In this document: positions 499 to 19,212 of the stretch, one piece after another
Layout: every line of letters starts with the position of its first letter
Numbering within the stretch: the stretch's first letter is position 1
DNA from: an uncultured Kordia sp.
Lineage (GTDB): Bacteria > Bacteroidota > Bacteroidia > Flavobacteriales > Flavobacteriaceae
Length of the DNA: 64,000 nt
Assembly (NCBI RefSeq): GCF_947489565.1
Contig: NZ_CANLEA010000015.1
Span: forward strand, 70,410-134,409
Direction: 5' to 3'
Position numbers and translations under genes: made by a program
Notes under the pieces: generated by a model
What the model saw: only the letters and a program-made list of their open reading frames with translations
What the model was told of the DNA's origin: nothing
The model's database searches: none

Positions 499-1644
499 TT
501 AATTTTTTATAAAAGTTCCTTGACTCGGATTGACAACAATGGCTGTTAATTCTCGATGAAACGTATGTTTGTACGCTTCAGAAACTTCAGTTATATAGGC
601 TTCCACATCATCTTCATGAATAATATTGATAGTACAACCACCAAAACCGCCGCCCATCATTCTAGAACCTAAAATATGAGTATTTGCTCTTGAAAAATCT
701 ACTAAAAAGTCTAATTCAGGACAACTCACTTCATACAAATGTTGCAAACCTTCATGCGATTGATACATTAAGTTCCCAAACGCTTCTAAATTTCCAGCTT
801 TCAATTCTTGTACAGCTTTTAAAACACGTTCATTTTCTGAAATTACATATTGACAACGTTGATAAACGATCCTGTCTAATTGCGATTCAAATTCCTTTAA
901 TATAGACAAAGATACATCGCGTAAAGATTGTATTGCACGATATTTTTGTTGCATAATTTTTACGCCCGATTCACATTCTTCACGTCTCTTATTATATTCA
1001 CTACTTGCCAAATTGTGTGAAACATTGGTATTCAATAACAAAATTTGGTACGGAGCAATATGTACAGGAATCAATTCATAATCCAATGATTGACAATCGA
1101 GTAGGAGCACATGATTTTCTTTGCTCATGACCACGGCAAACTGATCCATAATTCCACATTTTGTACCAACAAAACGATGTTCTGCATCGCGTGAAAGTCG
1201 AATCAATTCTTCAACAGGTTGTTTTAGGTTAAAAAATTCGTTTAAACCAATGGCCATACCACATTCCAATGCTGCGGACGAACTTATACCAGCACCAATA
1301 GGCAATTCACTTTCAATAATGCAATCAAAGCCAGAAAGTGTGGCATTTCTCATCAACAATTCATGAATTACACCTAAAACATAATTTTCCCATTCTTTGT
1401 CACTTTTACGTACATTTTTTAAATCGACCTGCAAAAAAGCATCGTAGCTTTTACTATAAATATTACAGGTAGTAACGGTATCATTTTTTCGAAAATAAAA
1501 GTGAATCTTCCGATCAATAGCTGTCGGTAATACAAAACCGTTATTATAATCAGTATGCTCTCCAATAAGGTTAATTCTCCCTGGAGAAGTCACCGTCAAT
1601 TCTGTTTTAAAATCTTTAAAATAATGTTTGTCTAATGCTGGCAC
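499..1644 (-). CDS. galK: Galactokinase (GHMP kinase)
   Basis: Motifs SPGRINLIGEHTDYNNGFVLP, PIGAGISSSAA, CGIMDQF and GSRMMGGGFGGC. GTG start. Confidence 0.96.
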   Translation of the reverse strand: MPALDKHYFKDFKTELTVTSPGRINLIGEHTDYNNGFVLPTAIDRKIHFYFRKNDTVTTCNIYSKSYDAFLQVDLKNVRKSDKEWENYVLGVIHELLMRNATLSGFDCIIESELPIGAGISSSAALECGMAIGLNEFFNLKQPVEELIRLSRDAEHRFVGTKCGIMDQFAVVMSKENHVLLLDCQSLDYELIPVHIAPYQILLLNTNVSHNLASSEYNKRREECESGVKIMQQKYRAIQSLRDVSLSILKEFESQLDRIVYQRCQYVISENERVLKAVQELKAGNLEAFGNLMYQSHEGLQHLYEVSCPELDFLVDFSRANTHILGSRMMGGGFGGCTINIIHEDDVEAYITEVSEAYKHTFHRELTAIVVNPSQGTFIKN

Positions 1645-1675
1645 AATAAAAAATTAAGGTGCGTAAATATACAAT

Positions 1676-1712
1676 AAAAATAATAAATGTAAATATTACG
1701 TTTATTATTTTT
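1676..1712. promoter_or_regulatory. Palindromic operator upstream of galK (candidate NrtR-family site, GT-N7-AC core)
   Basis: aaaaataataaatGT-aaatatt-ACgtttattattttt is a near-perfect palindrome. The same site (26 bp, 1 mismatch, in gene orientation) recurs upstream of susC at about 4015-4040. It overlaps a -7-like TACATTTA on the minus strand. Confidence 0.65.
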
Positions 1713-1817
1713 TCTTTTTGCTGAATTTTCTGCGAAAAGCACAACTCAATTAATTTGACTACATTTGAAAGCATTAAATAGTGGTCAGCTTGAGGTTAGA
1801 ATCAGGAGAGTTTTTCT

Positions 1818-1980
1818 TCTTTTCCGCAGTATAGCAGGAATTTTTCGTTAAAAATTTTTGAAGCCTTGGAAAAAATTTAGAAAAGTTCATGCGGTTTTAA
1901 TTTTTCCCAAAAAGAAAATTAAAAATACCTCTGGAAAAGCGCCGTTTCTTTTGTTTCTTTTCTTTGGGCGAACAAAGAAA
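1818..1980. repeat. 163-bp structured dispersed repeat, copy 1
   Basis: Matches 8855-9017 with 11 mismatches in 163 nt by manual alignment. Contains several hairpins with compensatory changes between the copies. Confidence 0.9.
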
Positions 1981-2110
1981 ACGAAAATAAAAAACTAAGA
2001 TTCAGTTTTTTGTAAATAACATACTAAATGTTTTTAAAGTTTTATTTGAATATTATGTATGTTAAACTGGAGTATAATAGTAGTTATATTTTTTAAATCG
2101 ATTTGATTAT

Positions 2111-2806
2111 ATGTGGAAAGAAGACAAATATGGTATGCATGACAAAATGTATGTGGCAACAGACTGTATTATATTTGGTTTTGATGATGGAATACTTAAA
2201 TTATTAGTTTTTAAACGTAGAATAGCACCGCAAGAAGGCGCCTTATCACTCATTGGAAGTTTTGTAAAATTGGATGAAAGTGTAACGGAAGCAGCCAACA
2301 GAGTCCTAGAAGAAATCACGGGTTTACAAAATGTCTTCATGGAAGAACTCAAAACCTACAATGCTGTTGAGAGAGATGATGGATACCGATGTATTTCTAT
2401 TGGGCAGTATGCGTTGATACGAATTGATGAGTACGATAAAAATTTGGTAGAAAAACACAATGCTATTTGGTATCCGTTTGATGAATTGCCTGCCTTAGTC
2501 TTAGATCACGATCAAATGGTAAAAGATGCCTTGGCACGATTGCGACGCAAAGCACGATATCAACCTATTGGATTTGAATTGCTCCCCGAAAAATTCACAC
2601 TTCCACAATTGCAAATACTATACGAAGCTATCTACCAAAAGAAAATGGATTCGCGTAATTTCCGTAAAAAAGTATTGTCGTTTGGCGTATTGATTAAATT
2701 GGAAGAAAAAGACAAATCGACTTCCAAAAAAGGCGCATTCTACTATAAATTCAATCATGAAAAATATCAAGAGTTAATTGCAAAAGGTATTAACTTTGAA
2801 GTCTAA
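2111..2806 (+). CDS. NrtR-family regulator (degenerate Nudix domain plus winged HTH; AraR/XylR-like sugar regulator)
   Basis: ATDCIIFGF, degenerate Nudix box GSFVKLDESVTEAANRVLEEITG, and C-terminal FELLPEKFTLPQLQILYEAI...NFRKK...YYKF wHTH. Confidence 0.88.
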   Translation: MWKEDKYGMHDKMYVATDCIIFGFDDGILKLLVFKRRIAPQEGALSLIGSFVKLDESVTEAANRVLEEITGLQNVFMEELKTYNAVERDDGYRCISIGQYALIRIDEYDKNLVEKHNAIWYPFDELPALVLDHDQMVKDALARLRRKARYQPIGFELLPEKFTLPQLQILYEAIYQKKMDSRNFRKKVLSFGVLIKLEEKDKSTSKKGAFYYKFNHEKYQELIAKGINFEV

Positions 2807-2812
2807 ACTGTA

Positions 2813-3838
2813 TTGCTACACATGGATGCTGTATTTGAAAAAATCATAGAACTCAAAAACGAAAGTTTACATTCCAAACATGAACAATTGGTCAATGGTA
2901 TTATCAATGCTATTAATGACAAAACCTTACAAAAGGGAGATCGTTTGCCTTCAATCAATAGCACGGTAAACAAACTTGGTTTTGCTAGAAAAACGATTGT
3001 ACGTGCGTATGAGGATTTAAAAAGCAAAGGTTTGGTGGAGTCCAAACAATTCAAAGGCTATTATATTTCAAACACAAATACGCGTATAAAACTCAAAGTG
3101 GCGTTACTTTTATTTGCGTTTCATTCGTTTCAAGAGGACTTTTACAATACATTTAGAAAAGAATTGGGTAAAAAATACCATATCGATGTATTTTTTCATC
3201 ACAACAATCTGGATGTTTTCAAAAATATTTTAAGTACCATTACGGGGAAATACGGAATGTATGTGATTGCGCCAATTCCAACGCCTGAAATGCCAAGCAT
3301 TCTAAAAAATATTCCATCGGACAAATTGTTAGTAATTGACAGATTCATTCCGATGTCAAATGAATACTCATACATTTCTCAGGAATTTGAGCATTCTACC
3401 TACAAACGTTTAGAAGAATTATTGCCAGCGATCAACAAGTACGCAAAAATGACGTTGTTCTTTCGTGATGATACCGATTATCCGATAGGAATCAAAAATG
3501 CATTTCGAAAATTCATCAAAACCTACAACATAAAAGGTACGATTGAAAAAAAATACAAGCAAGGAAGTGTCAAACCTAACACACTATATTTCTTCATCAG
3601 TGATACACATTTATGGCAGGTGTTACGCGATTGTAAATATGCAAATTATACGATAGGGAAGGACGTTGGTATTTTGGCACATAATGATAATGATGTGAAA
3701 GAAATTATCTTTGGAGGCATCACGACCATCTCTGCAGACTTTAAAAAAATGGCGCAAGAATCGGCGGCGTATGTCAAATATTTGACACCAATTCACCGAA
3801 TCATTCCGTCAGAAATAAAAAGGCGTAATTCACTATAA
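2813..3838 (+). CDS. GntR-family regulator with C-terminal periplasmic-binding-protein-like domain
   Basis: N-terminal GDRLPSIN...ARKTIVRAYEDLKSKGLVES..FKGYYI GntR wHTH. The start may be the ATG at 2822. Confidence 0.88.
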   Translation: MLHMDAVFEKIIELKNESLHSKHEQLVNGIINAINDKTLQKGDRLPSINSTVNKLGFARKTIVRAYEDLKSKGLVESKQFKGYYISNTNTRIKLKVALLLFAFHSFQEDFYNTFRKELGKKYHIDVFFHHNNLDVFKNILSTITGKYGMYVIAPIPTPEMPSILKNIPSDKLLVIDRFIPMSNEYSYISQEFEHSTYKRLEELLPAINKYAKMTLFFRDDTDYPIGIKNAFRKFIKTYNIKGTIEKKYKQGSVKPNTLYFFISDTHLWQVLRDCKYANYTIGKDVGILAHNDNDVKEIIFGGITTISADFKKMAQESAAYVKYLTPIHRIIPSEIKRRNSL

Positions 3839-3923
3839 CGCAGTAATAAAAGGCTTTTACTGCATTATTTATAAATTTTTTAACTTTTTTTTGATGATTT
3901 GTTAATCATGTGAAAAATTAGTG

Positions 3924-3931
3924 TATATTTG
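3924..3931 (+). promoter_or_regulatory. Bacteroidota sigma70 -7 element (TATATTTG)
   Basis: Exact TAnnTTTG consensus, with a TTTG (-33-like) at 3898-3901. Confidence 0.55.
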
Positions 3932-3974
3932 TAAAGTAGCATACTGTATCACAGTTTAGTATTTCGCTGTTCAG

Positions 3975-4004
3975 CTAAGGTGCCAAAGCATCTTAGATTT
4001 TTTT
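3975..4004 (+). terminator. Intrinsic terminator-like hairpin upstream of susC
   Basis: ctaaggtgc-caaa-gcatcttag (9-bp stem, one G-U that pairs only on the + strand) followed by a T run. Confidence 0.6.
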
Positions 4005-4014
4005 ATGAAAAAAG

Positions 4015-4041
4015 TAATAAGCGTAATATTTACATTTATAA
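4015..4041. promoter_or_regulatory. Second copy of the GT-N7-AC operator, upstream of susC
   Basis: taataagcGTaatatttACatttataa matches the galK site in gene orientation. It overlaps the -7-like TACATTTA at 4031-4038. Confidence 0.65.
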
Positions 4042-4089
4042 AAACGAATTAATAAATTTAATCAACTAACTAACCTTAACAATATTCTT

Positions 4090-7000
4090 ATGGATAGAAA
4101 ATTAATAAGACTATTATGCTGTATGACCTTTGCCTTATTTGGTTTTGCAGTAAATGCGCAATCAGTTTCGGGGACAGTTACCGATGGAACGATTCCGCTT
4201 CCTGGCGTAAATGTTACTGTAAAAGGAACTACAAATGGTGCCGTAACTGACTTTGATGGAAAGTATTCATTAAACGATGTAAATACTGGCGACACTCTTG
4301 TGTTTAGCTATGTAGGATACAAAACTCAAGAAGTAGCCTACAATGGAGAAGCAACGCTCGATGTAACTTTAGAAGAAGATACTGCAGCTTTAGATGAAGT
4401 CGTATTGGTAGGATACGGAACTTCTAGTAAACGACAAGCAACAAGTGCAGTAAGTACCATTAAAGGAAAAGAAATTACGAATACCATTGCTGGTAATCCA
4501 ACCGTAGCTTTACAAGGTAGATTGCCTGGTATACAAGTAGAAAGCTTTGGTGGACAACCTGGTGGTTCTGCCAATGTATTCATTCGTGGTATCAACTCTT
4601 TAAGCAACGCAGATCCGCTATATATTGTAGATGGATTGTTTGTCGATAATATGGATTATGTGAATCCGAAAGATATAGAAGACATTTCTGTATTAAAAGA
4701 TGCTGCAGCGGCAGCTATTTACGGATCGCGAGCAGCGAATGGAGTGGTTTTAATTACAACGAATCACGGAAAAAAAGATCAAGCATTAAGAGTGAATTTT
4801 AACTCAAGAATTGGTGTCGATTCGCCAAGCAAACGATTAGACTTCATTAATGGTCAACAATATACAGATTACTTAAATCAACGATTTGCAAATGATGGTT
4901 CGTCTACAACCGTAACTTGGAATGGTGTAGATACAGATTGGCAAGAAGAATCTTTACAATCAGGAATTGTGGAAGATTATGGATTGTCCATCGCTGGTGG
5001 AGGCGAAAAATCATCATACTTCGGTTCTGTAAACTACTTCTACCAAGATGGTATCTTAGTAGGTTCAGGATTTAAGCGATTAAACGCACGATTGAACTCT
5101 AGACATGAATTAGGAAAATTTACCATCACACAGTCATTAGGTATGACAGAAGGTAAATTGCAAGAAAATAACTGGTATGGTTTTGACGGAACTACAGCGC
5201 CAACAATTGCCTTATCAGATCCAAACAATGATGGAGGATTTGCTGGGCCAACAGATCCAATTCATGGTCCTGGTGGTGTCAACCAATTCGGATTGGCTTC
5301 TTTGGAAAACAATTTAGAAACGACAAGAACCATGTTCGCAAGTTTAAAAATTGATTATGAAATCACAGAAGAACTAACAGCTTCTGTAAACTTAGGTGTA
5401 GATTATAGAAACAGAAGAAACTTCCAGTTTACGCCAACATACTTAATGACAAATCCTGTAACGAGTGGAAACAGTATTGATCCTGTTCGTAACGTAAATG
5501 AATTAAACGACTTGACAAACTTTGTACAAGATGATGTAAATCTATTGTTTGAACCAACCATTTCATACAAAAAGACATTCAACGATGTGCACAAATTCGA
5601 AGCGGTTTTAGGACATACACGTTTTATTGAAAAACAAGATAGCAATGGTGTATACGGTGAAGGAACTCCAGCAAACTCAATTCAAGTAGCAAGTGCGTTG
5701 ACTTCGGTTACACAAACACTTGGTGCTAGCAATGAAGCAGCTTTACTATCATACTTTGGTAGAGTAAACTACGGATATGACAACAAATACTTATTCTCTG
5801 CAACAGTAAGACGCGATGCTTCTTCACGATTTGCAGAAGACAATAGAGTTGGTTATTTCCCAGCATTCTCAGGAGCTTGGAATGTAAGTAGCGAAGAATT
5901 CTGGAACTCAGAAACCATCAACTTCTTTAAAGTAAGAGCTTCGTATGGTGAATTAGGATCGTATCCAGATCAATTTTACCCAACACAAGCAGTTTTCTTA
6001 GCCAATCAATCTAACGCAAGTTTTGGTGGAACTACCGCAACAGGTTTAGCACAAACAACATTGGCTGATGAGAATCTAGTGTGGGAAACTACAAAAACAT
6101 TTGACATTGGTATTGATATGGCGTTGTTAGATAACAAAATCAAATTCACAGCCGATTACTATTCTAAAAATGTAGAAGATGCCTTGGTGCCAATCAATGT
6201 GCCATCAACTTCAGGAGTAAGTTTGCCTGTGACCAGAAATGCAGGTACCTTAGTAAACAACGGATTTGAATTTGACTTAAGCTATAATAAATCAGAAGGA
6301 GATTTTAAATATACGATTGCAACAAACTTTTCTTTCAATCTTAAAAATGAAGCAGAAGACATTCCTGCAACGATCTTAGGACCTGGAATTGATGAAGATT
6401 TACGTGTGGTAAACAGAACGGAAGCAAACGGACCTGTAGGAGCATTTTACGGTTGGGTTGTAGAAGATAGAGTAGATCCAGCAACAGGAAACTTTGTACG
6501 AGTAGATACCAACGGAGATGGAACAGTAAACGAAGACGATCGTACAATTATTGGAGATCCAACACCAGATTTTACCTATGGTTTAAACATTACTGGAGAA
6601 TACAAGAAGTTTGACTTTGCTTTAAACTTCAACGGTGTACAAGGAAATGATATTTACAACTTAAGCCGTTATTACAATATTCTTTGGCAAGATGGTGGTA
6701 AATTAACAGATGTATTAAATGCATGGACACCAACAAACACAAACACAAACATACCAATTGCTACAGAAGCAGATCCAGGAGGAAACAGGGAACCTTCTTC
6801 ATTCTTCGTAGAAGACGGATCATACTTCAGACTTAAAAACCTAGAAATTGGATACAATTTTGACAATGGTTTCTTAGGTGTCGATTGGATTGCAGACGTT
6901 CGTTTATCACTAAACGTTCAAAATGTATTTGTCATCACTAACTATAGTGGTTACGATCCAGATGTTGCTTCCACAAACGGAGGTAGAGCCAACTTAAATT

Positions 7001-7113
7001 CAGGTGTTCCTGGATTACGACCTAATGTAAACCCATTATTAGGAAGAGGTTTGGATGCAAGAGCATATCCAAACGCACGTACATTTAGTATTGGATTACA
7101 AGCAAGTTTCTAA
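4090..7113 (+). CDS. susC: SusC/RagA TonB-dependent outer membrane transporter
   Basis: Signal peptide, CarboxypepD-like N-domain (GVNVTVKGTTNGAVTDFDGKY), plug PLYIVDG...ISVLKDAAAAAIYGSRAANGVVLITT, C-terminal YPNARTFSIGLQASF. Confidence 0.97.
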   Translation: MDRKLIRLLCCMTFALFGFAVNAQSVSGTVTDGTIPLPGVNVTVKGTTNGAVTDFDGKYSLNDVNTGDTLVFSYVGYKTQEVAYNGEATLDVTLEEDTAALDEVVLVGYGTSSKRQATSAVSTIKGKEITNTIAGNPTVALQGRLPGIQVESFGGQPGGSANVFIRGINSLSNADPLYIVDGLFVDNMDYVNPKDIEDISVLKDAAAAAIYGSRAANGVVLITTNHGKKDQALRVNFNSRIGVDSPSKRLDFINGQQYTDYLNQRFANDGSSTTVTWNGVDTDWQEESLQSGIVEDYGLSIAGGGEKSSYFGSVNYFYQDGILVGSGFKRLNARLNSRHELGKFTITQSLGMTEGKLQENNWYGFDGTTAPTIALSDPNNDGGFAGPTDPIHGPGGVNQFGLASLENNLETTRTMFASLKIDYEITEELTASVNLGVDYRNRRNFQFTPTYLMTNPVTSGNSIDPVRNVNELNDLTNFVQDDVNLLFEPTISYKKTFNDVHKFEAVLGHTRFIEKQDSNGVYGEGTPANSIQVASALTSVTQTLGASNEAALLSYFGRVNYGYDNKYLFSATVRRDASSRFAEDNRVGYFPAFSGAWNVSSEEFWNSETINFFKVRASYGELGSYPDQFYPTQAVFLANQSNASFGGTTATGLAQTTLADENLVWETTKTFDIGIDMALLDNKIKFTADYYSKNVEDALVPINVPSTSGVSLPVTRNAGTLVNNGFEFDLSYNKSEGDFKYTIATNFSFNLKNEAEDIPATILGPGIDEDLRVVNRTEANGPVGAFYGWVVEDRVDPATGNFVRVDTNGDGTVNEDDRTIIGDPTPDFTYGLNITGEYKKFDFALNFNGVQGNDIYNLSRYYNILWQDGGKLTDVLNAWTPTNTNTNIPIATEADPGGNREPSSFFVEDGSYFRLKNLEIGYNFDNGFLGVDWIADVRLSLNVQNVFVITNYSGYDPDVASTNGGRANLNSGVPGLRPNVNPLLGRGLDARAYPNARTFSIGLQASF

Positions 7114-7130
7114 AATAAAAAAAATTACAG

Positions 7131-8711
7131 ATGAAAAAATTAATGAACCTAAAATCAGTCGTTAGCTTACTAACACTCGCATTGGTATTTGTTGTAGTTG
7201 CTTGTTCTGATGATGTATTAGATCAACAAAACAACAACGCAACATCGACCGCAAACTTCGGTACTTCTGTGGAACAAGTAGAAGCCGCAGTAAACGGAGC
7301 ATTTCACCCAATCACAGGAACATTTTTCTGGGGAAGAATTGTACATACTGGTGCTTTATTACGTTCGGATGAATTCAATATTTTTCCTTTCGGAAGCAAC
7401 ACAGCAATGTCAACATTTCAAGGAAATCCTGGCGATCGTTGGGCAACAGAACCTTGGCAAGAATTATACAAGTCGATTGCCAGATGTAACAATATTATTG
7501 TAAATACATCGACAACAGCCATTCCAACAGCAGATTACAATGCTTTGGTGGGACAAGCATATTTTTTAAGAGCATTTGATTATTGGTATTTAGTAAACCT
7601 TTACGGGAATGTTCCTTTAATTACAGATTTACCTGATTTAGATAACTTATTAGTAAATCAGGCAACAATGCAAGAAGTTTGGACGCAAATTATTGCCGAT
7701 TTAGAAATGGCAGAACAAATGTTACCATCAAGCTGGTCAGGTGAAAACTTAGGGCGCCCAACGTCTGGTGCGGCGAGAGCTTTAAAAGGAAAAAGTTATT
7801 TATATATGGGCGATTGGTCTAACGCACACCAAACACTAGATGATTTAGTGGGGCAATACAGTTTATTGCCAGCAGCTCAATTTGGAGATAACTTTACAAC
7901 GACGAACGAAAACAATTCAGAATCTGTATTTGAATTACAATTCTTAGGACAAGCAAACTTTGTTTGGGGATCAGACATTCCACAAACGGGAACGATGGGG
8001 AATTATCATATTGATTATGCGCCACCAGCAAAATCTCCAGATCAAAGTCACGTAGTAAATCCTTGGTTAAGAGCATTGTTTGAAGCAAACGGAGATACCT
8101 TCCGTAGAAACGAAACCTTAGCATACGATTATACTGGAGCCACAGGTTATGGTGGATTGCCATTCAATACAGACTTTGTTGATGATATTCCTGTAGCAAC
8201 AGATGCAAACGTTGAACCAATCTTTTCTAAAAAATATTCAGGAATGGATTTAGGAACAAGAGGAGAAGTAGATTTCTTAGGAACAAATGTTGGTAACAAC
8301 TGGCGTGTAATTCGTTATGCAGATGTATTATTAATGTTGGCAGAAGCGTTAAACGAAGATGGAATGACAATGTCAGCAGGAAACTATGTAAACATGGTTC
8401 GCGAAAGAGCAGGTTCTGGTTTAACACCAATATCAACAGCATTAAGTCAAGCAGACATGCGCCAAGCAATCATTGACGAAAGAGCTATGGAACTAGCTGG
8501 AGAAGGACATCGTTTCTTCGATTTAGTACGTTGGAATTTAGCAGATGATTATTTAGGACAAACATCATTACACGTAACCAATGGTTCACAAACATACCAT
8601 CCAAAATCGTTAAGTGGCGGGACATACCAAACATCAAAACATGAATTGATATGGATACCAAATTCTGAATTAGATGCGAATCCTAATCTAACTCAGAATC
8701 CAGGATACTAA
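7131..8711 (+). CDS. susD: SusD/RagB nutrient-binding lipoprotein
   Basis: Lipobox VVVACSDD, GQAYFLRAFDYWYLVNLYGNVP, RYADVLLMLAEA, ERAMELAGEGHRFFDLVRW, C-terminal NPNLTQNPGY. Directly follows susC. Confidence 0.97.
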   Translation: MKKLMNLKSVVSLLTLALVFVVVACSDDVLDQQNNNATSTANFGTSVEQVEAAVNGAFHPITGTFFWGRIVHTGALLRSDEFNIFPFGSNTAMSTFQGNPGDRWATEPWQELYKSIARCNNIIVNTSTTAIPTADYNALVGQAYFLRAFDYWYLVNLYGNVPLITDLPDLDNLLVNQATMQEVWTQIIADLEMAEQMLPSSWSGENLGRPTSGAARALKGKSYLYMGDWSNAHQTLDDLVGQYSLLPAAQFGDNFTTTNENNSESVFELQFLGQANFVWGSDIPQTGTMGNYHIDYAPPAKSPDQSHVVNPWLRALFEANGDTFRRNETLAYDYTGATGYGGLPFNTDFVDDIPVATDANVEPIFSKKYSGMDLGTRGEVDFLGTNVGNNWRVIRYADVLLMLAEALNEDGMTMSAGNYVNMVRERAGSGLTPISTALSQADMRQAIIDERAMELAGEGHRFFDLVRWNLADDYLGQTSLHVTNGSQTYHPKSLSGGTYQTSKHELIWIPNSELDANPNLTQNPGY

Positions 8712-8764
8712 AAAAATCACTAAGTGTTAATTTAAACTATTTTGGATTAGTTTTTTAATTGAGC

Positions 8765-8794
8765 AAAAGTCAGGTTTTTCGAAACTTGGCTTTT
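8765..8794 (+). terminator. Intrinsic terminator after susD
   Basis: aaaagtcaggttt-ttcg-aaacttggctttt, a 13-bp stem with G-U pairs and a TTCG loop. Confidence 0.75.
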
Positions 8795-8854
8795 CTTCAA
8801 CTAATAACTTATTTTTAATGAGAGTTTGATATAAGAATCAAGATTGCGTTTTTA

Positions 8855-9017
8855 TCTTTTCCGCAGTATAGTAGGAGCTTTTCGTTAAAAATTTTTGAAG
8901 CCTTGGAAAAAATTTAGAAAAGTTCATGCGGTTCTAGTTTTTCACTAAAAGAAAACTAGAAATACCTCTGGAAAAGCGCCATTTCTTTTGTTTCTTTTCT
9001 TTGGGCGAGCAAAGAAA
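8855..9017. repeat. 163-bp structured dispersed repeat, copy 2
   Basis: Same orientation as 1818-1980, about 93% identical. A ~50-nt insert follows before the shared acgaaaataaaaa tail. Confidence 0.9.
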
Positions 9018-9187
9018 TCAAAGATTCATGAGTTCTTTAATTTAAAATAGAAAGCTCACGAACTAAAACGAAAATAAAAACAATAGAATTTGGTGTTTTA
9101 ATATGAGCGTTTTAGAAAAGTTAAGATTGTTATTTGAATGTAATTTATATCGAATGGATATTATTTTAGTAAAAAAACTTTATTCAA

Positions 9188-12100: not shown

Positions 12101-12544
12101 GTAAGTTTCACAGAATTACTCAACATAGAAAATTTAGAAGAAGAAACATTCAAAGCAACTACATTTTCAAGTAGTTATATAGAAAACCTTGGAAATGGAA
12201 ACTATAAAATCACCAAACTTCCAGAGCAATGTCAAGTCGCACCAATCAATGATATTTTACTAAAAGATATTGACAATGATGGCTTTACAGATGCCTTATT
12301 AGTTGGAAATGACTTAACTGCAGAAACCAATTACGGACTCAACGATGCGCTGATTGGCGTGCATTTAAAAGGTAGTAAAAACGGTTTTGAAGTAGTCAAA
12401 AATAGTGCTTCAGGATTTTACGTACCAGGACAATCACATCACATTGTAACACTAAAATCTGCCACAGGAGAAACCATGATTTTGGCTTCTCAGAACAACA
12501 CAAATGCTAAAATCTTTTTAATCAAAGAAAGCGAAAAAAAATGA
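9188..12544 (+). CDS. FG-GAP/VCBS-repeat lipoprotein with ASPIC/UnbV domain (CRTAC1-like)
   Basis: Lipobox LLISCSSEN, many DxxxDGxxD Ca-binding repeats (GDFNNDGLSDI, DFDNDGDLDL) and RGYLSSMEPIVHFG UnbV-type segment. TTG start. Confidence 0.85.
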   Translation: MKKYSLLSILICLLISCSSENSKAKFSYVKSSHSNINFTNTIVENDSVNVVMFQYVYNGGGVGIGDFNNDGLSDIVFTGNQVSSKMYINKGNFQFEDISENAQFKTSSWVTGVSIIDINTDGYEDIYLNVGGANCNNDCENLLFINQGLDANGFPTFKEQAAEYNLADGNYSQQTAFFDYDSDGDLDAFITRNGNVKFDKNSPVPKNYMPKNLADMLLRNDRKEGVNHPVFTDVSDSLGITYKGFSLGVNIQDFNGDNLPDIYVSNDFITEDLLYINQGNHPETNKHQGFTESNKQFLSHITYNAMGVDISDINNDALPDILVVDMLPESYDRQKRMLGVMNYDKYELSKRNNYNSQFMHNTLQLHNGMLNDSVLKASEVGYMSGMASTDWSWAPILADFDNDGDKDAYITNGYVKDLTDLDFINYSTQNTMFGSKESRTKRLRELLNKIPSVHLPNYFYENKGAIQFNDVSKDWKVAENSFSNGAAYADFDNDGDLDLVVNNINQEAFLLKNNTNTPETNNYLRIKLKGEVANAKAIGAKVTIWQNGNAQHQYQSVIRGYLSSMEPIVHFGVASNTAVDSLQVLWPNGKVSSMTNVAVNSVVEADIKSAFDKNISKNTTETIFTDVSNRLDFEHKENRGHDYVLQHLLMRQYSKFGPCIAAADVDNQPGDEVFIGGSKGEAATIWTQTSTGTFELLQELDSKHEDTDAVFVDIDNDNDLDLYVASGGTEVQRNAPVLQDRIYLNDGNGHFSQAENILPEIFEVSARVRPNDFDKNGDIDFFIGSRIVQGRYPQAPKSQLLTNTNGTFLATTNDALTNLGMITDATWQDINNDGWDDLIVVGEWLPITIFLNNNGTLEKSSPNFTNATNETVETFGWWNAIKAADFDNDGDLDFIVGNQGENGFVLPKENKPVYVYKNDYDNNGSTDPIVAQYFNDPENNNTLLPVQTRDDVMKQLVKLKDRYLTYKDFAKVSFTELLNIENLEEETFKATTFSSSYIENLGNGNYKITKLPEQCQVAPINDILLKDIDNDGFTDALLVGNDLTAETNYGLNDALIGVHLKGSKNGFEVVKNSASGFYVPGQSHHIVTLKSATGETMILASQNNTNAKIFLIKESEKK

Positions 12545-14310
12545 TGACAGTAAACCATACAGTCCCAACAACGGACATTCAAATAGTAGGACTCTCCGAG
12601 AATTTTAAAACACATCTTCATGAAGTGTACAGTCATAATCGAGTTTCTATATACGAACTCAATATTACCGCTGTAGAACCCGAAATTCCAACTCCTTTAA
12701 CTATCAAATGGAAAATTCCAGCACACAATGTCAAAGGACTTTGGAAACCTACAACCGATTTCGCCAAAAGAATTCAAGCCGATTGGGAACTAAAACCGAT
12801 GGAATCACGCATATCGATTGATTCTCCCGTCATTTCACTATTCGGAAATAAAGACGAAAACAGACATACATTTGCGTGTTCAAATGCTATTAATAAACTA
12901 GAATTAGACGCCGTAATTCGTGAAGAAGACGATTATTTCTATTGTCATATCAAAATGTTTGCAGAGCGACATTCTAAGCTAAATCAATACAACGTACAAA
13001 TTCGTATTGATTCGGGAGAAAAACACTTTTCAGAAGCGATCAGAGAAGTATCGCAATGGTGGGAAAACTATGAAAACTTAGCGCCAGCTTATGTACCGGA
13101 AATTGCACAAACGCCGTTGTATTCTACGTGGTATCAATTTCACCAAGACTTGGAAGAAAACACATTGATAGAAGAATGCAAACTAGCGTACGGACTAGGC
13201 TATCGCTCTATTGTCATAGATGATGGCTGGCAAACCAACGACAACAATCGCGGATATGATTATACAGGCGATTGGAATCCAGATCGTTTGTCAAAAACGC
13301 GCGAATTTGTCGACAATGTTCATGCGACTGGAATGAAAGTTGGTTTTTGGTATTCGGTACCTTTCTGCGGAAAAAAATCAGAAGCGTACAAACGTTTCAA
13401 AGGAAAATTCTTAACCGAAAACCACCGTTGGGCGCCAGTGTTTGATCCAAGATATCCAGAAGTCAGAGAATATCTAATCAATATCTATAAAACAGCGTTA
13501 ATCGACTGGAATTTAGATGGTTTTAAACTTGATTTTATTGACGATTTTAAACTCTATCCAGATACACTTCGAGAAAAAAATGATGAAATGGACTTTCATT
13601 CCATCAACGAAGCTGTCGATCGTTTATTGACAGATGTCATGTATACCTTACGCGCCATCAATCCAGAAGTATTTATAGAATTCAGGCAAAAATATACAGG
13701 TCCAGCCATGCGAAAATACGGAAACATGTTCCGTGCTTTTGATTGTCCAGGCGATGGTGTCATGAACAGAGTTCGGATTGCAGACATCAAAATGCTTGCA
13801 GGAAATACAGCCGTACACAGCGATATGATTACATGGCATAATGATGAAACCGTTGAAGTTGCCGCATTGCAATTGGTAAATACACTCTTTGGCGTGCCTC
13901 AAATTTCGGTGAAGCTCAAAAATGTTCCTGAAAATCATTTAAAAATGATTAAATTCTACACAAATTATTGGAACATTAATAAAGAAACAATTACCACAGG
14001 ACATTTTATTCCATCGCGACCGTTGGCAAACTATCCGTTACAGCAAGTCTCTAAAAATGGCAATTTGATCATTGGAGTGTATGACGATCATGTTGTACAC
14101 ATCAATGAAAACGCAAATACAATTGACATCCTCAATGGAAAATTAACGACATCCGTTGTTGTAAAAAGTACCGTTGATGCTGGCGAATACAGTTTGACCA
14201 CTTTTGATTGTATGGGAGAAAAAACCAATCACTACAACATCAACTTGAAACAAGGATTGTTTGAAGTGGAAACGCCTGCTTGTGGTTTAATTCAACTAAA
14301 AAAAATCTAA
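12541..14310 (+). CDS. Glycoside hydrolase, GH36/clan-D alpha-galactosidase-like, predicted cytoplasmic
   Basis: YSTWY, IVIDDGWQ, nucleophile motif DGFKLDF and putative acid/base RAFDC. No signal peptide. Confidence 0.82.
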   Translation: MMTVNHTVPTTDIQIVGLSENFKTHLHEVYSHNRVSIYELNITAVEPEIPTPLTIKWKIPAHNVKGLWKPTTDFAKRIQADWELKPMESRISIDSPVISLFGNKDENRHTFACSNAINKLELDAVIREEDDYFYCHIKMFAERHSKLNQYNVQIRIDSGEKHFSEAIREVSQWWENYENLAPAYVPEIAQTPLYSTWYQFHQDLEENTLIEECKLAYGLGYRSIVIDDGWQTNDNNRGYDYTGDWNPDRLSKTREFVDNVHATGMKVGFWYSVPFCGKKSEAYKRFKGKFLTENHRWAPVFDPRYPEVREYLINIYKTALIDWNLDGFKLDFIDDFKLYPDTLREKNDEMDFHSINEAVDRLLTDVMYTLRAINPEVFIEFRQKYTGPAMRKYGNMFRAFDCPGDGVMNRVRIADIKMLAGNTAVHSDMITWHNDETVEVAALQLVNTLFGVPQISVKLKNVPENHLKMIKFYTNYWNINKETITTGHFIPSRPLANYPLQQVSKNGNLIIGVYDDHVVHINENANTIDILNGKLTTSVVVKSTVDAGEYSLTTFDCMGEKTNHYNINLKQGLFEVETPACGLIQLKKI

Positions 14311-14313
14311 CCT

Positions 14314-15972
14314 ATGGATTCATTATCAATCATTTCATTTATTGGCTTTACACTTTTAGTAGCATTTATTGCGTGGTATGCCACCAGAGGCACAGACGAA
14401 AGTACTGCAAAAGGATATTATTTGGGAGGAAGAAGCCTTGGATTCATAACCATTGCAGGTTCATTACTACTCACCAATTTATCCGCAGAACAAATTGTTG
14501 GACTAAACGGACAATCTTTTACCGAAGGTGTATTGGTCATGGCTTGGGAAACCTTGGCAGCAATCGCCATGATATTTACAGCCATCTATCTATTACCCAA
14601 ATACATGCGTTCGGGAATTACGACGATTCCAGAATTCATTCAAGATCGTTTTGACAAGCAAACAAAAGCCATACTATCTGTTTTATTCATCATAGCGTTT
14701 GGAGTAGTATTACTGCCAACCATCTTATATTCAGGGTCTTTGGCGTTTAGCACGATGTTCGATTTGCCAACACTATTTGGAATGTCGCAAGGAAGTGTCA
14801 TCACAATCTGTGTGTGGTCTATTGGAATTATAGGTGTGATTTATGCAATTTTTGGAGGATTAAAAGCTGTAGCCGTATCTGATTTAGTGAATGCAATCGG
14901 ATTGTTAATTGGTGGATTGTTAATTCCGATTTTTGGTTTACTATTAATTGGAGATGGAAGTATTTCTGATGGAATTAGTACGCTTTGGAACGAAAATCCA
15001 GAAAAATTTGATGCTATCGGAGAAGTAGATGCTTCTATTCCTTTTGGGACGATCTTTACAGGAATGATGATTGCACAAATGTATTATTGGGGAACAAATC
15101 AATCCATATTGCAACGTGTATTTGGTGCGAAAAGTTTAAAAGAAGGACAAAAAGGAATGATTCTCGCAGGATTTGTCAAATTCTTAATTCCAATCATTGT
15201 TGTATTGCCTGGAATCATCGCATGGCATTTATTTGATGGAACGCTTGAAAATGCAGACGAAGCTTATCCTTCACTTGTGAAAAAAGTATTACCAGGCGCA
15301 TATCTTGGATTCTTCGCTGCGGTTTTATTTGGCGCAGTATTAAGTTCCTTCAATAGTTTACTAAACAGTAGTGCGACCTTATTCGGATTTGACTTGTACA
15401 AACAATATTTTAAAGGAAATGCTACCGAAAAAGAAACCGTAAAAGCGGGGAAAATCTTCGGGTTATTATTGGCGTTAATTTCGATGTCTATCGCGCCATT
15501 TATCGCCGACGCACCAGATGGTTTATTTGCCTATATTCAAGAATCGTTAGGAAGTTTAAGTGTACCAATTTTAGCTGTTGTAGCCATTGGAATCTTAACA
15601 AAACATGTACCAGCCTTAGGCGCAAAGATTGTATTAACGGTTGGTGTGTTAATGTACCTTATCAGTCAATTTGTAGTTCAACCAATTTTTGTAGATGCCG
15701 CTTTGGCGGAAGCAGCAACGAATGGAGTTACGAATGCGAAAGAATTAGGCATTATCAAAGCGAATGCCTATCCGCACTTTTTACATGTCATGGGAATTTT
15801 GTTTGTCATCAACATTGCCATCATGCTCATTATTGGAAAACTACGTCCTAAAACAGACGAGTACATTCCAAAAGTTACAGAAGAGATTGATATTACGCCA
15901 TGGAAATATGCAAAAATCGTAGGATTAATCATTACGATCATGGTACTAAGCACCTATTTAATATTTAAATAA
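14314..15972 (+). CDS. Sodium:solute symporter (SSS family, YidK-like sugar/glycoside transporter)
   Basis: YYLGGRSL, SLLLTNLSAEQIVGLNG, YYWGTNQSILQRVFGAKS and about 14 hydrophobic helices. Confidence 0.92.
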   Translation: MDSLSIISFIGFTLLVAFIAWYATRGTDESTAKGYYLGGRSLGFITIAGSLLLTNLSAEQIVGLNGQSFTEGVLVMAWETLAAIAMIFTAIYLLPKYMRSGITTIPEFIQDRFDKQTKAILSVLFIIAFGVVLLPTILYSGSLAFSTMFDLPTLFGMSQGSVITICVWSIGIIGVIYAIFGGLKAVAVSDLVNAIGLLIGGLLIPIFGLLLIGDGSISDGISTLWNENPEKFDAIGEVDASIPFGTIFTGMMIAQMYYWGTNQSILQRVFGAKSLKEGQKGMILAGFVKFLIPIIVVLPGIIAWHLFDGTLENADEAYPSLVKKVLPGAYLGFFAAVLFGAVLSSFNSLLNSSATLFGFDLYKQYFKGNATEKETVKAGKIFGLLLALISMSIAPFIADAPDGLFAYIQESLGSLSVPILAVVAIGILTKHVPALGAKIVLTVGVLMYLISQFVVQPIFVDAALAEAATNGVTNAKELGIIKANAYPHFLHVMGILFVINIAIMLIIGKLRPKTDEYIPKVTEEIDITPWKYAKIVGLIITIMVLSTYLIFK

Positions 15973-16001
15973 CTCCAACTAAAAATACCAAACCACAAGC
16001 G

Positions 16002-19000
16002 ATGGAAAAGAAATATGTAGTAGCCTTTGATCAAGGAACCACAAGCACAAGAACGATTGTCTTTGATCAAAAAGGTCAAATTCATGCTATTGCACAAAAA
16101 GAGTTAACACAACACTATCCAGAATCTGGTTGGGTAGAACACAATCCGATGGATATCTACAACGATCAGGTAGAAACCTTTCACAAAGCAATTTCAACTA
16201 GTGGAATTTCAGCAGAAGAAATTGCGGCTGTCGGAATTACAAATCAGCGTGAAACTACCGTAGTTTGGGATAAAGAAACAGGAGAACCTATTTATAATGC
16301 GATTGTTTGGTTGGACAAAAGAACGACTGAAATCTGTGATCAACTCAAGCAAAATGGCATGTCGGAATATGTACGTCAATCTACAGGTTTGGTGATTGAT
16401 TCGTATTTTTCTGGAACAAAACTCAAATGGATTTTAGATCATGTAAAAGGCGCTAGAGAAAAAGCAGCTGCAGGAAAATTGTGTTTTGGAACGGTTGATA
16501 GTTGGCTGATTTATAAATTCACGAACGGAAAAAAACACGTGACCGATCATACGAATGCGTCACGTACAATGATATACGATATCAAAAATTTATGTTGGGA
16601 TGATACACTTTTAAAAGCATTGCAAATTCCAAAATCAGTCTTGCCAACAGTTCAACAATCTTCTTCCGATTTTGGAAGTATTGATTACAAAGGCACCGAA
16701 ATTCCAATCTTTGGAGTCGCTGGAGATCAACAAGCATCGTTGTTTGGACAAGGTGGACTCAAATCAGGAATTGCCAAAAACACCTACGGAACAGGTTGTT
16801 TTATGCTATTGAATATTGGTAAAAAAATTGTGACTTCTAAAAGTGGTTTGTTAACGACATTGACCTGTAGTTTGGAAAATGAACCTGTAAAATATGCTTT
16901 GGAAGGAAGTATTTTTGTAGGTGGCGCTTCCATTCAATGGTTGCGTGATCGGATGCAAATCATAGAAAAAGCATCGGATACCGAAGCAATTTGCAATAGT
17001 ATTCCGCCATTAAAAAATATCTATGTAGTTCCGGCTTTCGCTGGATTGGGCGCGCCGCATTGGGACGACAAAGCCAAAGGAAGTATTTACGGAATGACCT
17101 TAGATACAGGCAAAAACGAACTCATCAAAGCAACAGTGGAAGCTTTAGCCTATCAAACAAAAGATGTCATTACTGCCATGATCAATGATAGTGGTAAGGA
17201 AATGAAAACGCTCAAAGTAGATGGTGGCGCAAGTGCCAATAACTATTTGATGCAGTTTCAATCAGATATTTTGAATGTTGCGGTAGACAGACCTAAAATG
17301 ATTGAAGTCACAGCCTTTGGAGCAGCATTGTTGGCTGGAATCAAAGCAGGAATTTGGACGAAAAATGATATTGAAACCATTCGTGAAGTAGATACTATTT
17401 TCACTTCTGAAATGAAGCCTAAAACCCGCAAAAAGAAATACAAAGGCTGGCAAAAAGCGGTAGAACGCACCAAAAGTTCCAACAAAAAAAAAGTCGCATC
17501 TAAAGAAATTCGTTTTTCAGTCTTAGATCGTCAACGACAACTCAAAAAAATAAAATCCGAAACCTTTGATTTAATCGTCATTGGAGGCGGCGTTACAGGT
17601 GCGGGAATTGCCTTAGATGCTTCTTCTAGAGGTATGAATGTTTGTTTGATAGAAAAAAATGACTTCGCTTCGGGAACGAGTAATAAATCTACAAAACTGA
17701 TTCATGGTGGATTGCGATACCTAAAACAATTGGAAATTGGATTGGTACGTGAATCGGGCTCAGAACGTGCTATTGTACACAAACTAGCTCCACATTTAGT
17801 CATTCCAGAAAAGATGTTATTGCCATTAATAGAAGGCGGAACGTATGGAAAAATGATGACGTCTATTGGTTTAAAAGTATATGATTTATTGGCAAATGTG
17901 GGCGGCGATGATCGTCGTAAAATGCTGAATAAACAAGAAACGCTCGACAAAGAACCTTTGTTGGACGAAAGCATCGTGTTAGGAAGTGGTTATTATGCCG
18001 AATACCGAACCGATGATGCACGTTTGACGATAGAAATTCTTAAAAAAGCAACTGAATTTGGCGCAACGATTATCAATTATTGCGAAATGGAATCGTTTGC
18101 ATATGACGATGATGGTAAAATTGAACATTTACATTGTATTGATAATAATACAGGTAAAAAAATCAGCATAAAAGCACGTAATTATGTATCTGCGGCAGGT
18201 CCTTGGGTAGATTTACTTCGTGAAAAAGATCATTCCAAAAACAACAAACATTTACACTTGACAAAAGGAGTACATATTGTATTTCCGCATGAAAAATTAC
18301 CGATCAAACAATCTGTTTATTTTGATGTAGCTGATGGACGCATGATTTTTGCCATTCCACGCGGACGTTGTACGTATGTTGGGACAACCGATACCAATTA
18401 TTATGGAAATTTAGAACGTGTCGTTGCAACCAAAGAAGATGCAGAATATCTATTGAAAGCGGCAAATAATACTTTTCCAGACATTCATCTAACGATTGAT
18501 GATATTGAATCGAATTGGGCAGGATTACGTCCGTTGATTCACGAAGAGAAAAAAGATCCTTCAGAATTATCACGGAAAGATGAAATTTTTGTGTCTGATA
18601 GCGGTTTAATCTCTATTGCAGGAGGAAAATTAACAGGCTATCGTAAAATGGCGCAACGCGTGATTGATGAAGTTTTGAAAACATTGCCTAAAAAACGAAA
18701 GGACAAGCTTAAAAAATCGTCCACAAAAACCATAGAATTGGTACATCCTGCAATGCATTCTTCTCAAGAAGTTAAGGAATACCAAAAACAGTTGGAGGAA
18801 AAACTAGCAACTATCGGAATACAAGATTCGTATTATGCGTGGCATTTGTGTACTACCTTTGGAAAAAAAGCGGACACTATTATTGAAAGAGCCAATTTCT
18901 TTATTGATGGTACGCCGCAAGAACGTTTGATTCGTGCTGAATTATGGTATTGTATTCACAACGAAATGACCAATAGTTTGACAGATTTCTTTGTACGCAG

Positions 19001-19172
19001 AACGGGTCGTTTGTATTTCAATATCACAAGTATTCAACACTATTTGGAAGTCATTTTAAACGATTGTATCAATTATTTAGAGTGGGATACTGCTCGTGTG
19101 GAAGCAGAGAAAGCAACACTAGAGATGCTTTTAGCAGATGCTACCACATATTATGATAAAGAATTTGAGTAG
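16002..19172 (+). CDS. glpK-glpD: Fused glycerol kinase (N-terminal) and FAD-dependent glycerol-3-phosphate dehydrogenase (C-terminal)
   Basis: The first ~495 aa are GlpK (FDQGTTSTR, GITNQRETT, DHTNASRT, GDQQA, KNTYGTGCF). They continue in frame into GlpD (IGGGVTGAG, GTSNKSTKLIHGGLRYL, WAGLRPL, GGKLTGYRKMA). Confidence 0.93.
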   Translation: MEKKYVVAFDQGTTSTRTIVFDQKGQIHAIAQKELTQHYPESGWVEHNPMDIYNDQVETFHKAISTSGISAEEIAAVGITNQRETTVVWDKETGEPIYNAIVWLDKRTTEICDQLKQNGMSEYVRQSTGLVIDSYFSGTKLKWILDHVKGAREKAAAGKLCFGTVDSWLIYKFTNGKKHVTDHTNASRTMIYDIKNLCWDDTLLKALQIPKSVLPTVQQSSSDFGSIDYKGTEIPIFGVAGDQQASLFGQGGLKSGIAKNTYGTGCFMLLNIGKKIVTSKSGLLTTLTCSLENEPVKYALEGSIFVGGASIQWLRDRMQIIEKASDTEAICNSIPPLKNIYVVPAFAGLGAPHWDDKAKGSIYGMTLDTGKNELIKATVEALAYQTKDVITAMINDSGKEMKTLKVDGGASANNYLMQFQSDILNVAVDRPKMIEVTAFGAALLAGIKAGIWTKNDIETIREVDTIFTSEMKPKTRKKKYKGWQKAVERTKSSNKKKVASKEIRFSVLDRQRQLKKIKSETFDLIVIGGGVTGAGIALDASSRGMNVCLIEKNDFASGTSNKSTKLIHGGLRYLKQLEIGLVRESGSERAIVHKLAPHLVIPEKMLLPLIEGGTYGKMMTSIGLKVYDLLANVGGDDRRKMLNKQETLDKEPLLDESIVLGSGYYAEYRTDDARLTIEILKKATEFGATIINYCEMESFAYDDDGKIEHLHCIDNNTGKKISIKARNYVSAAGPWVDLLREKDHSKNNKHLHLTKGVHIVFPHEKLPIKQSVYFDVADGRMIFAIPRGRCTYVGTTDTNYYGNLERVVATKEDAEYLLKAANNTFPDIHLTIDDIESNWAGLRPLIHEEKKDPSELSRKDEIFVSDSGLISIAGGKLTGYRKMAQRVIDEVLKTLPKKRKDKLKKSSTKTIELVHPAMHSSQEVKEYQKQLEEKLATIGIQDSYYAWHLCTTFGKKADTIIERANFFIDGTPQERLIRAELWYCIHNEMTNSLTDFFVRRTGRLYFNITSIQHYLEVILNDCINYLEWDTARVEAEKATLEMLLADATTYYDKEFE

Positions 19173-19212
19173 TTTTGAAAGAATATAATTCGTACGCGTA
19201 AAAAGTCTAAAA

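Follow-up and report, generated by a model that had tools for sequence, protein, structure and literature searches.

A SusC/SusD locus of an uncultured Kordia with a probable role in the use of glycerol alpha-galactosides

What does a SusC/SusD locus take up when its sole glycosidase is cytoplasmic, and when genes for the catabolism of both galactose and glycerol lie inside or beside it? We address this question for a locus found in a 64,000-nucleotide stretch of DNA from an uncultured Kordia species (Flavobacteriaceae; contig NZ_CANLEA010000015.1, positions 70,410 to 134,409), below called the window, whose numbering is used throughout unless another contig or locus is named. Comparative genomics points to an answer to which we give a probability of roughly 60%, namely that the locus imports and catabolises glycerol alpha-galactosides, with floridoside and isofloridoside as the most likely natural substrates. 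Both rank among the main soluble photosynthates and osmolytes of red algae. The evidence does not separate floridoside from isofloridoside, or from other alpha-galactosyl glycerols; red algae contain both floridoside and (Gal)2-4-glycerol (PMC6320990).

Gene content of the locus

The gene set, as delineated by a listing of open reading frames and by family profile scans, spans positions 499-20538, and the minus-strand operon that begins with galK continues to the left of it. The genes are:

1-480, minus strand: 5' portion of a gene for a LacI-family regulator, the second in a galK-lacI-galE-galT operon (Pfam LacI and Peripla_BP_1)
499-1644, minus strand: galactokinase galK (TIGR00131, 336 bits against a cut-off of 227)
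2111-2806, plus strand: NrtR/AraR-like regulator with Nudix and winged-helix domains (Pfam NrtR_WHD 91 bits, AraR_C 41 bits, NUDIX 29 bits)
2813-3838, plus strand: conserved locus regulator in which a GntR-type helix-turn-helix (HTH) domain is joined to a LacI-type sugar-binding domain (Pfam GntR and Peripla_BP_3)
4090-7113, plus strand: SusC-type TonB-dependent outer-membrane transporter (TIGR04056, 799 bits; Plug, CarboxypepD_reg and barrel domains)
7131-8711, plus strand: SusD-type lipoprotein (Pfam SusD_RagB, 141 bits; lipoprotein signal)
9188-12544, plus strand: FG-GAP / ASPIC-UnbV double beta-propeller lipoprotein of 1118 amino acids (seven Pfam FG-GAP_3 stretches and UnbV_ASPIC; lipoprotein signal)
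12541-14310, plus strand: cytoplasmic retaining glycosidase of 589 amino acids, similar to glycoside hydrolase family 36 (GH36; clan GH-D), the candidate alpha-galactosyl-glycerol hydrolase (Pfam Melibiase)
14314-15972, plus strand: SGLT-type sodium:solute symporter, which may import the intact glycoside across the inner membrane (NF007790, 728 bits)
16002-19172, plus strand: fusion of glycerol kinase (GlpK) and FAD-dependent glycerol-3-phosphate dehydrogenase/oxidase (GlpD), 1056 amino acids in one frame (TIGR01311; DAO and DAO_C)
19213-20538, plus strand: homologue of vanadium-dependent (iodo)peroxidases, a PAP2-superfamily lipoprotein of 441 amino acids and the last gene of the operon (PDB 4CIT)

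Within 499-20538 only galK lies on the minus strand; everything from the regulators to the peroxidase gene is on the plus strand. The susC and susD genes are separated by 17 bp, and from the FG-GAP gene onward the spacing ranges from an overlap of 4 bp to a gap of 40 bp, with the enzyme and symporter genes only 3 bp apart. No MIP/GlpF gene and no secreted glycoside hydrolase is present at the locus; two MIP genes lie on other contigs of the genome. The first-pass annotation of the window had placed galK, SusC, SusD, the GH36-like enzyme, the symporter and GlpK-GlpD where we find them, and had noted the absence of a glycerol facilitator and of a secreted polysaccharidase. Its gene list was right as far as it went, lacking the FG-GAP/UnbV lipoprotein, the peroxidase homologue and both regulators; its extent of 499-19172 is too short, since the right edge is at 20538 and the left edge lies beyond the start of the window.

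The GH36-like enzyme

The glycosidase belongs to a distant GH36-like subfamily of cytoplasmic enzymes without a characterised member. Its match to Pfam Melibiase is marginal (30.4 bits against a cut-off of 27, E 2.6e-7), and sequence searches reach only remote GH36 and GH31 alpha-galactosidases (best E 1e-7, or 2e-13 with a 40-sequence profile), while its relatives in NCBI and UniRef are titled "glycoside hydrolase family 36 protein". No member of the subfamily was found in the PDB. An alignment-based AlphaFold (AF2) model (pLDDT 90.5, pTM 0.90) has an N-terminal beta-sandwich, a (beta/alpha)8 catalytic barrel and a C-terminal beta-sandwich. Its top 25 Foldseek matches are all GH36 alpha-galactosidases or a GH36 galactosaminidase (11-15% identity, TM ~0.65), with GH31 alpha-galactosidases ranking after them. 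The nucleophile motif K329-L330-D331, which does not vary among 40 sequences, lines up with K476-W-D478 of Geobacillus AgaA, and the DDGW motif at 227-230 is invariant in the enzyme family. D428, part of an H-S-D motif on a predicted strand, is invariant too and is probably the general acid/base; profile alignments to known GH36 enzymes end before it. Retaining enzymes of clan GH-D (GH27, GH31 and GH36) act on alpha-linkages. Fold and nucleophile motif are thus in place for the enzyme to be a candidate for cleaving alpha-galactosyl-glycerol, a substrate suggested by its genomic context.

The enzyme has no signal peptide, as had been noted at first pass, and the open frames of its orthologues, at 591-608 amino acids, leave no space for one. 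If the hydrolase is cytoplasmic, the glycoside must enter the cell intact, and, given the 3-bp gap between the two genes, the symporter is the obvious candidate for its import. The nearest solved structure to the symporter is the Vibrio Na+/galactose symporter vSGLT (E 1e-61).

Conservation of the gene neighbourhood

A scan of species-representative genomes gave 80 loci, which a maximum-likelihood tree divides into two clades, each with 100% support. Clade A comprises 43 rows, many of them on short contigs and all from Bacteroidota (Flavobacteriaceae, Saprospiraceae, Lewinellaceae and Chitinophagales). Its sister, clade B, comprises 38 rows from Bacillota, Verrucomicrobiota, Gemmatimonadota, Acidobacteriota, Proteobacteria and some Bacteroidota. 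The context typical of clade A comprises, besides the enzyme, a GntR/LacI regulator, the SusC/SusD pair, a symporter and one or two FG-GAP genes. The first-pass annotation had staked its proposal on glpK-glpD accompanying the enzyme and symporter in other genomes, and they do: glpD stands beside the enzyme in 19 of the 43 clade-A loci, galK in 13 and either of the two in 24, whereas neither glpD nor glpK is near the enzyme in any of the 38 loci of clade B. Since the same gene set surrounds orthologues in two orders of Bacteroidota, the arrangement is not due to chance. Moreover, the position of glpD relative to the enzyme differs, being upstream in Saprospiraceae and downstream in Flavobacteriaceae, so that the linkage has outlasted rearrangement.

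We also used a less biased sample of Flavobacteriaceae, with one genome per genus (301 genomes). A homologue of the enzyme is present in 30 of these, and in 24 (~8%) it is at least 52% identical. Twenty loci were retrieved, eight of which have glpK and glpD, seven galK, and 14 galK and/or glpK-glpD; the symporter and the SusC/SusD pair are each found in 18. In several loci galT comes after galK, and in many galK and galT follow the enzyme gene. GlpK and GlpD are fused in three lineages (the others being L003, that is Tenacibaculum agarivorans, and L049) and encoded by adjacent, separate genes elsewhere. Cultured carriers include Tenacibaculum agarivorans, Algibacter agarivorans, Aquimarina agarivorans and Zobellia; three species named "agarivorans" together with Zobellia fit a red-algal niche, although this is anecdotal.

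Two variants of the neighbourhood were also seen. Zobellia-type loci (L005, L010, L012, L107 and L108) have a Maa/LacA-type acetyltransferase gene between the GH36-like gene and the symporter, a SusC/SusD pair of a different family (28-33% identity) and no adjacent glycerol genes. In Flagellimonas hymeniacidonis (L042:5299-13324), an enzyme of the sister clade is clustered with GH109, a LacI regulator, a GHMP sugar-1-kinase, a nucleotidyltransferase and a sulfatase, which suggests salvage of a sulfated galacto-type sugar.

Fate of the products and the proposed route

The conserved neighbours galK and glpK-glpD imply that the products are galactose and glycerol. The genome as a whole is consistent with this. 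GlpK, GlpD, a true galK and a Melibiase-family gene are each present once in its assembly (99.99% complete, 6.4 Mb), all of them at the locus, with galE and galT adjacent. The only other GHMP-kinase match is 26% identical to galK. Beyond the window start, the LacI-family gene continues (full open frame of 335 amino acids, read from the genome at L088:11883-12890) and is followed on the same strand by galE (TIGR01179, 411 bits against a cut-off of 262) and galT (TIGR00209, 426 bits against 102). The three enzymes of the Leloir pathway thus all score above curated equivalog cut-offs, and because galK, the lacI-type gene, galE and galT all run on the minus strand, the single Leloir cluster of the genome is divergent from the SusC operon. 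As for the fusion protein, its GlpK half matches TIGR01311 with 693 bits (cut-off 590), and its GlpD half is closest to Bacillus GlpD (PDB 3DA1, E 4e-156), followed by GlpO (2RGH, E 3e-105). Against NCBIfam, the GlpD half scores 470 bits with the type-1 glycerol-3-phosphate oxidase model and 324 bits with GlpD models, all of these below cut-off.

Profile searches of the genome found no GH1 or GH35 gene and no canonical GH2 or GH42 beta-galactosidase. Three open frames show weak matches to the GH2 barrel, and one of the three a weak match to GH42 as well; a GH5 is among them, and the LacZ architecture is absent from all. With no canonical beta-galactosidase, glycerol would here have just one source, a direct alpha-galactosyl-glycerol bond. 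GlpK is likewise missing from a congener that lacks the enzyme and retains galK; a single comparison of this sort is weak evidence.

The following route can be proposed. SusC and SusD would capture the small glycoside and move it over the outer membrane, probably helped by the FG-GAP/UnbV lipoprotein, and the vSGLT-type sodium symporter would carry it intact over the inner membrane. The GH36-like retaining glycosidase would then split the presumed alpha-galactosyl-glycerol bond. Galactose would enter the Leloir pathway by way of the divergent galK-lacI-galE-galT operon, and glycerol would be converted to dihydroxyacetone phosphate by the fused GlpK-GlpD. The GntR-HTH/LacI-type regulator would control expression at an operator just past the susC promoter, and in this lineage the NrtR-like regulator may act as well, through a candidate 25-nt site common to galK and susC. 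Intact import, cytoplasmic cleavage and phosphorylation of both halves had already been suggested at first pass, and this scheme fits the absence of a signal peptide, the 3-bp gap and the fact that the only GlpK, GlpD and galK of the genome are found here.

Outer-membrane proteins and the peroxidase homologue

Between Kordia and Saprospiraceae, SusD is more conserved (59-64% identity to the orthologues) than the enzyme is between the same orders (44-54%), which suggests a tightly constrained ligand. The FG-GAP gene is also conserved across related loci. The AF2 model of its product (pLDDT 88) consists of two calcium-loop beta-propellers linked by the UnbV domain, and apart from generic multi-propeller scaffolds its sole meaningful Foldseek match is CRTAC1. 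We considered whether this protein might be a hidden polysaccharidase, and rejected the idea since neither the model nor the Foldseek search revealed any enzyme fold. Paralogues of 38% identity follow SusC/SusD pairs in two other loci of the genome, at C7:188000-207900 (L089) and C9:60000-79900 (L090), both without endo-enzymes. One of these loci encodes GH20, GH109, a NagB-PIG-L fusion, a BadF-type kinase, a GHMP kinase and a nucleotidyltransferase; the other encodes GH3, a gluconolactonase and a 6-phosphogluconate dehydrogenase. We infer that the FG-GAP lipoprotein is a generic capture or binding partner of SusC/SusD systems for small glycosides.

The last gene of the operon is homologous over its full length to a vanadium iodoperoxidase of Zobellia (PDB 4CIT; E 4e-184, residues 4-439 against 12-448). 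The vanadate-site stretches WDEKYRSNLIRPET, YTSGHS and GGIHYR are identical or nearly identical in the two proteins, and the product is a putative (iodo)peroxidase. Homologues stand beside the enzyme in six other loci from both orders (L003, L020, L022, L035, L036 and L108). The possibility that this PAP2 protein is a phosphatase acting on a phosphorylated glycerol glycoside was ruled out, the protein being a close full-length homologue of a characterised iodoperoxidase. A peroxide link between the GlpD half and the peroxidase homologue is conceivable. Elsewhere in the genome (C4:128088-132924), two tandem PAP2/haloperoxidase-like paralogues (26-28% identity) adjoin one of the MIP channel genes.

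Alternative explanations

Several observations weigh against glycerol alpha-galactosides as the substrate. A SusC/SusD pair with an 1118-residue surface lipoprotein seems oversized for a solute of 254 Da, and a larger substrate is possible. The vSGLT-like symporter could transport free galactose, and the conserved peroxidase homologue has no place in the scheme of glycoside use. Enzymes of the sister clade occur in other settings, namely the Flagellimonas cluster described above and, in Paenibacillus, beside an ABC sugar transporter and a LacI regulator. The other such observations each favour one of the alternatives to which we now turn.

One may consider first a general alpha-galactoside locus, for melibiose, the raffinose family or alpha-galacto-oligosaccharides, in which the glycerol genes are neighbours for unrelated reasons. 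This is unlikely in our view. The fold and the top structural matches of the enzyme are those of generic GH36 alpha-galactosidases, galK is as common a neighbour as glpD, and at six of the 20 loci from the genus-level sample the enzyme is flanked by no gene for glycerol or galactose use. Active-site conservation, too, is nearly equal in the clades with and without glycerol context, which share 75 near-invariant positions and differ in two that are clade-specific; instead of a dedicated floridoside hydrolase, we may thus be dealing with a general alpha-galactosidase or with an enzyme of different galacto-type specificity. An attempt to predict the aglycone from clade-specific residues was abandoned, since only D240 and F301 differ consistently, which is too few. 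Several features, however, are not what one would expect of a general alpha-galactoside locus: glpD or glpK lies within the operon, with the symporter gene on one side and the last gene on the other; the linkage is found in two orders with different gene orders; the glpK-glpD copy is the only one in the genome, and the congener without the enzyme is also without GlpK; and no gene for handling fructose, sucrose or glucose is present at the locus.

The second alternative, which had been raised at first pass, is that the substrate is the deacylated head group of digalactosyldiacylglycerol (DGDG), i.e. digalactosyl-glycerol (alpha-Gal-1,6-beta-Gal-glycerol), from which the enzyme would remove the outer alpha-galactose. 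Galactolipids are abundant in all algae. Moreover, a LacZ-type GH2 gene is found next to the enzyme in seven clade-A loci (mostly Saprospiraceae plus three Flavobacteriaceae with a divergent copy), and in two of the GH2-bearing loci the order is enzyme-GH2-enzyme. Such variants probably handle mixed alpha/beta galactosyl-glycerols, be they galactolipid head groups or (Gal)2-4-glycerols, and to that extent they speak against a purely alpha-linked substrate. For the Kordia locus the DGDG explanation is nevertheless improbable: with no canonical GH1, GH2, GH35 or GH42 beta-galactosidase in the genome, glycerol would not be freed from beta-Gal-glycerol, which leaves the link to glpK-glpD unexplained. 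No lipase is conserved at the locus, and the occurrence of the enzyme in ~8% of the sampled genera of Flavobacteriaceae is patchy for a universal substrate. Thus, the DGDG head group does not suit this genome and is plausible for the Saprospiraceae variants with a LacZ-type GH2.

Finally, it is very unlikely that the enzyme is an alpha-N-acetylgalactosaminidase, a beta-L-arabinopyranosidase or a transglycosidase with some other, possibly larger, algal glycoconjugate as its target, processed at the surface by the FG-GAP and PAP2-type lipoproteins. In favour of this, identity to any solved GH36 enzyme is just 11-15% and the best structural match is a galactosaminidase, a sister-clade enzyme lies in the Flagellimonas cluster with GH109, GHMP kinase, nucleotidyltransferase and sulfatase, and the two secreted lipoproteins, though conserved, are without an assigned role and not accounted for by glycerol galactoside use. 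Against it, the operon of many loci continues after the enzyme with a genuine galactokinase gene and galT, the FG-GAP model has no enzyme fold, and the PAP2 protein is closely homologous to a characterised iodoperoxidase and not to a phosphatase.

Regulators and upstream DNA elements

An orthologue of the GntR/LacI-type regulator lies immediately upstream of susC in most clade-A loci. In contrast, the NrtR-like regulator is confined to loci that also have a 25-nt element or a divergent galK (L003 and L101). Besides the window, Tenacibaculum agarivorans (L003) is the sole locus with this regulator among the first 80, and a third genome (L101) has the NrtR-like gene together with a divergent galK. 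The DNA elements in question are:

1683-1707, minus strand: 25-nt element (pattern TAATAARCGTAATATTTACATTTAT), galK copy, candidate operator or promoter for the NrtR-like regulator
3924-3931, plus strand: Bacteroidota-type -7 box TATATTTG upstream of susC
3937-3954, plus strand: conserved operator-like site TAGCATAnnnTAnCAnAG just after the -7 box
3975-4006, plus strand: terminator-like hairpin (3975-3996, nine pairs) followed by a T-run, ATTTTTTTAT; the best terminator-like site of the region
4015-4039, plus strand: susC copy of the 25-nt element, ending ~50 nt ahead of the start of susC

The operator-like site is found just after the -7 box upstream of susC in all 12 loci compared, which come from different genera, and only once in the Kordia genome. 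It is likely to be the operator of the GntR/LacI-type regulator. As for the 25-nt element, it has two matches in the window where none is expected, with the same orientation relative to the gene in both cases and, for the galK copy, a distance of ~40 nt from the gene. Its 17-nt core matches exactly only at these two places in the 6.4-Mb genome, and a relative of the element is found upstream of susC in Tenacibaculum agarivorans. Allowing one mismatch in the core yields two copies in the genome, one on the wrong strand and the other 21 nt upstream of a gene for a 360-residue iron-type alcohol dehydrogenase (C42:308-1427, L084). By our own estimate ~0.5 such matches are expected by chance, and we therefore do not count them as additional members of a regulon.

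The terminator-like hairpin sits between the conserved promoter/operator and the susC-side copy of the 25-nt element. A similar hairpin is found upstream of susC in Tenacibaculum agarivorans, and such hairpins are restricted to the lineages with the NrtR-like regulator. The hairpin may serve as an attenuator, or else be a relic by which the ancestral promoter is silenced.

Repeats and possible acquisition of the locus

The widest intergenic spacing (476 bp, between susD and the FG-GAP gene) contains a copy of a dispersed repeat. This repeat of ~165 bp is present in two near-identical copies, one upstream of the NrtR-like gene (1818-1985) and one (8852-9017) that makes up most of the 476-bp spacing; it may interrupt or modulate the operon. 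The G+C content is 0.36-0.38 over the operon (4001-20000) and 0.30-0.33 in the flanks. Every gene of the locus has its closest relatives in Tenacibaculum agarivorans (66-83% identity), and the congener mentioned above is without the enzyme. The locus may have been acquired horizontally.

Significance

The first-pass annotation knew of no characterised flavobacterial SusC/SusD locus for floridoside, and in the literature that we searched, with incomplete coverage, we likewise found no description of such a locus or of bacterial catabolism of floridoside or galactosyl-glycerol. A Zobellia microarray supplement lists the GH36 gene ZGAL_2211 with no significant response; floridoside was not among the substrates. 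If glycerol alpha-galactosides are indeed the substrate, a function could be given to a widespread GH36-like subfamily without a characterised member, and SusC/SusD systems would be seen to serve a low-molecular-weight heteroside. This would also suggest a role for the FG-GAP/UnbV lipoproteins that accompany several SusC/SusD pairs without endo-enzymes, and supply a genetic marker with which to follow red-algal photosynthate into Bacteroidota. The enzyme might, in addition, be useful for making or analysing glycerol galactosides.

A bolder version of this reading is one that we advance tentatively, rating it at somewhat less than even odds. According to it, the GH36-like subfamily would consist of dedicated floridoside hydrolases with a co-evolving SusC/SusD/FG-GAP module, making this the first described Bacteroidota system that scavenges an algal compatible solute and not a polysaccharide, present in about one in twelve genera of Flavobacteriaceae and in Saprospiraceae. 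Such a system might be a main bacterial route of turnover for red-algal photosynthate, and its co-transcribed surface vanadium iodoperoxidase might link feeding to peroxide and halide chemistry on the surface of the alga.

Comparison with known systems

The last gene of the operon, as a full-length homologue that keeps the vanadate-site motifs, resembles Zg-VIPO1 of Zobellia galactanivorans (PDB 4CIT), and we know of nothing that explains an iodoperoxidase homologue inside a sugar-utilisation operon. The enzyme shares its three-domain build, its DDGW and KxD motifs and the aligned nucleophile with the GH36 alpha-galactosidases (AgaA and AgaB of Geobacillus, AgaSK, TmGalA). It differs from them in its low identity (11-15%), in its length (589 residues, compared with ~720-750) and in having invariant motifs of its own, such as NRGYDYTGDW after DDGWQT.

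The logic of importing first and cleaving afterwards recalls the lac and mel systems of Escherichia coli, where a permease imports intact galactosyl-glycerol and a cytoplasmic galactosidase cleaves it; the Zobellia-type variants even carry the Maa/LacA-type acetyltransferase. The hydrolase and transporter families are, however, unrelated, the linkage here would be alpha rather than beta, and the Kordia locus has an extra outer-membrane stage formed by SusC and SusD as well as built-in glycerol catabolism. For the uptake of a small sugar through SusC and SusD there is a precedent in NanO/NanU, the SusC/SusD-type sialic-acid system of Bacteroides and Tannerella. NanU is also the best NCBIfam match of the SusD described here, but the match is weak (72 bits against a cut-off of 425), so that this SusD is not a member of the family, and the substrate and downstream pathway differ.

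The closest parallels in organisation are the Sus-like polysaccharide utilisation loci, with which the locus has in common a tandem SusC/SusD, a surface lipoprotein partner, a glycosidase encoded at the locus and a substrate-responsive regulator. Unlike those loci, it encodes no secreted endo-acting enzyme, since its sole glycosidase is cytoplasmic and the FG-GAP lipoprotein is without an enzyme fold, and what it is predicted to take up is a small heteroside, not a polysaccharide. Regulation also differs, with a GntR-HTH/LacI hybrid and an NrtR-like regulator in place of a hybrid two-component system, SusR or an ECF sigma pair, and the catabolic genes for both products lie inside the locus or beside it. 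Thus, it appears from its gene content that the locus is a Sus-like system adapted to a small heteroside, built around a cytoplasmic GH36-like enzyme.

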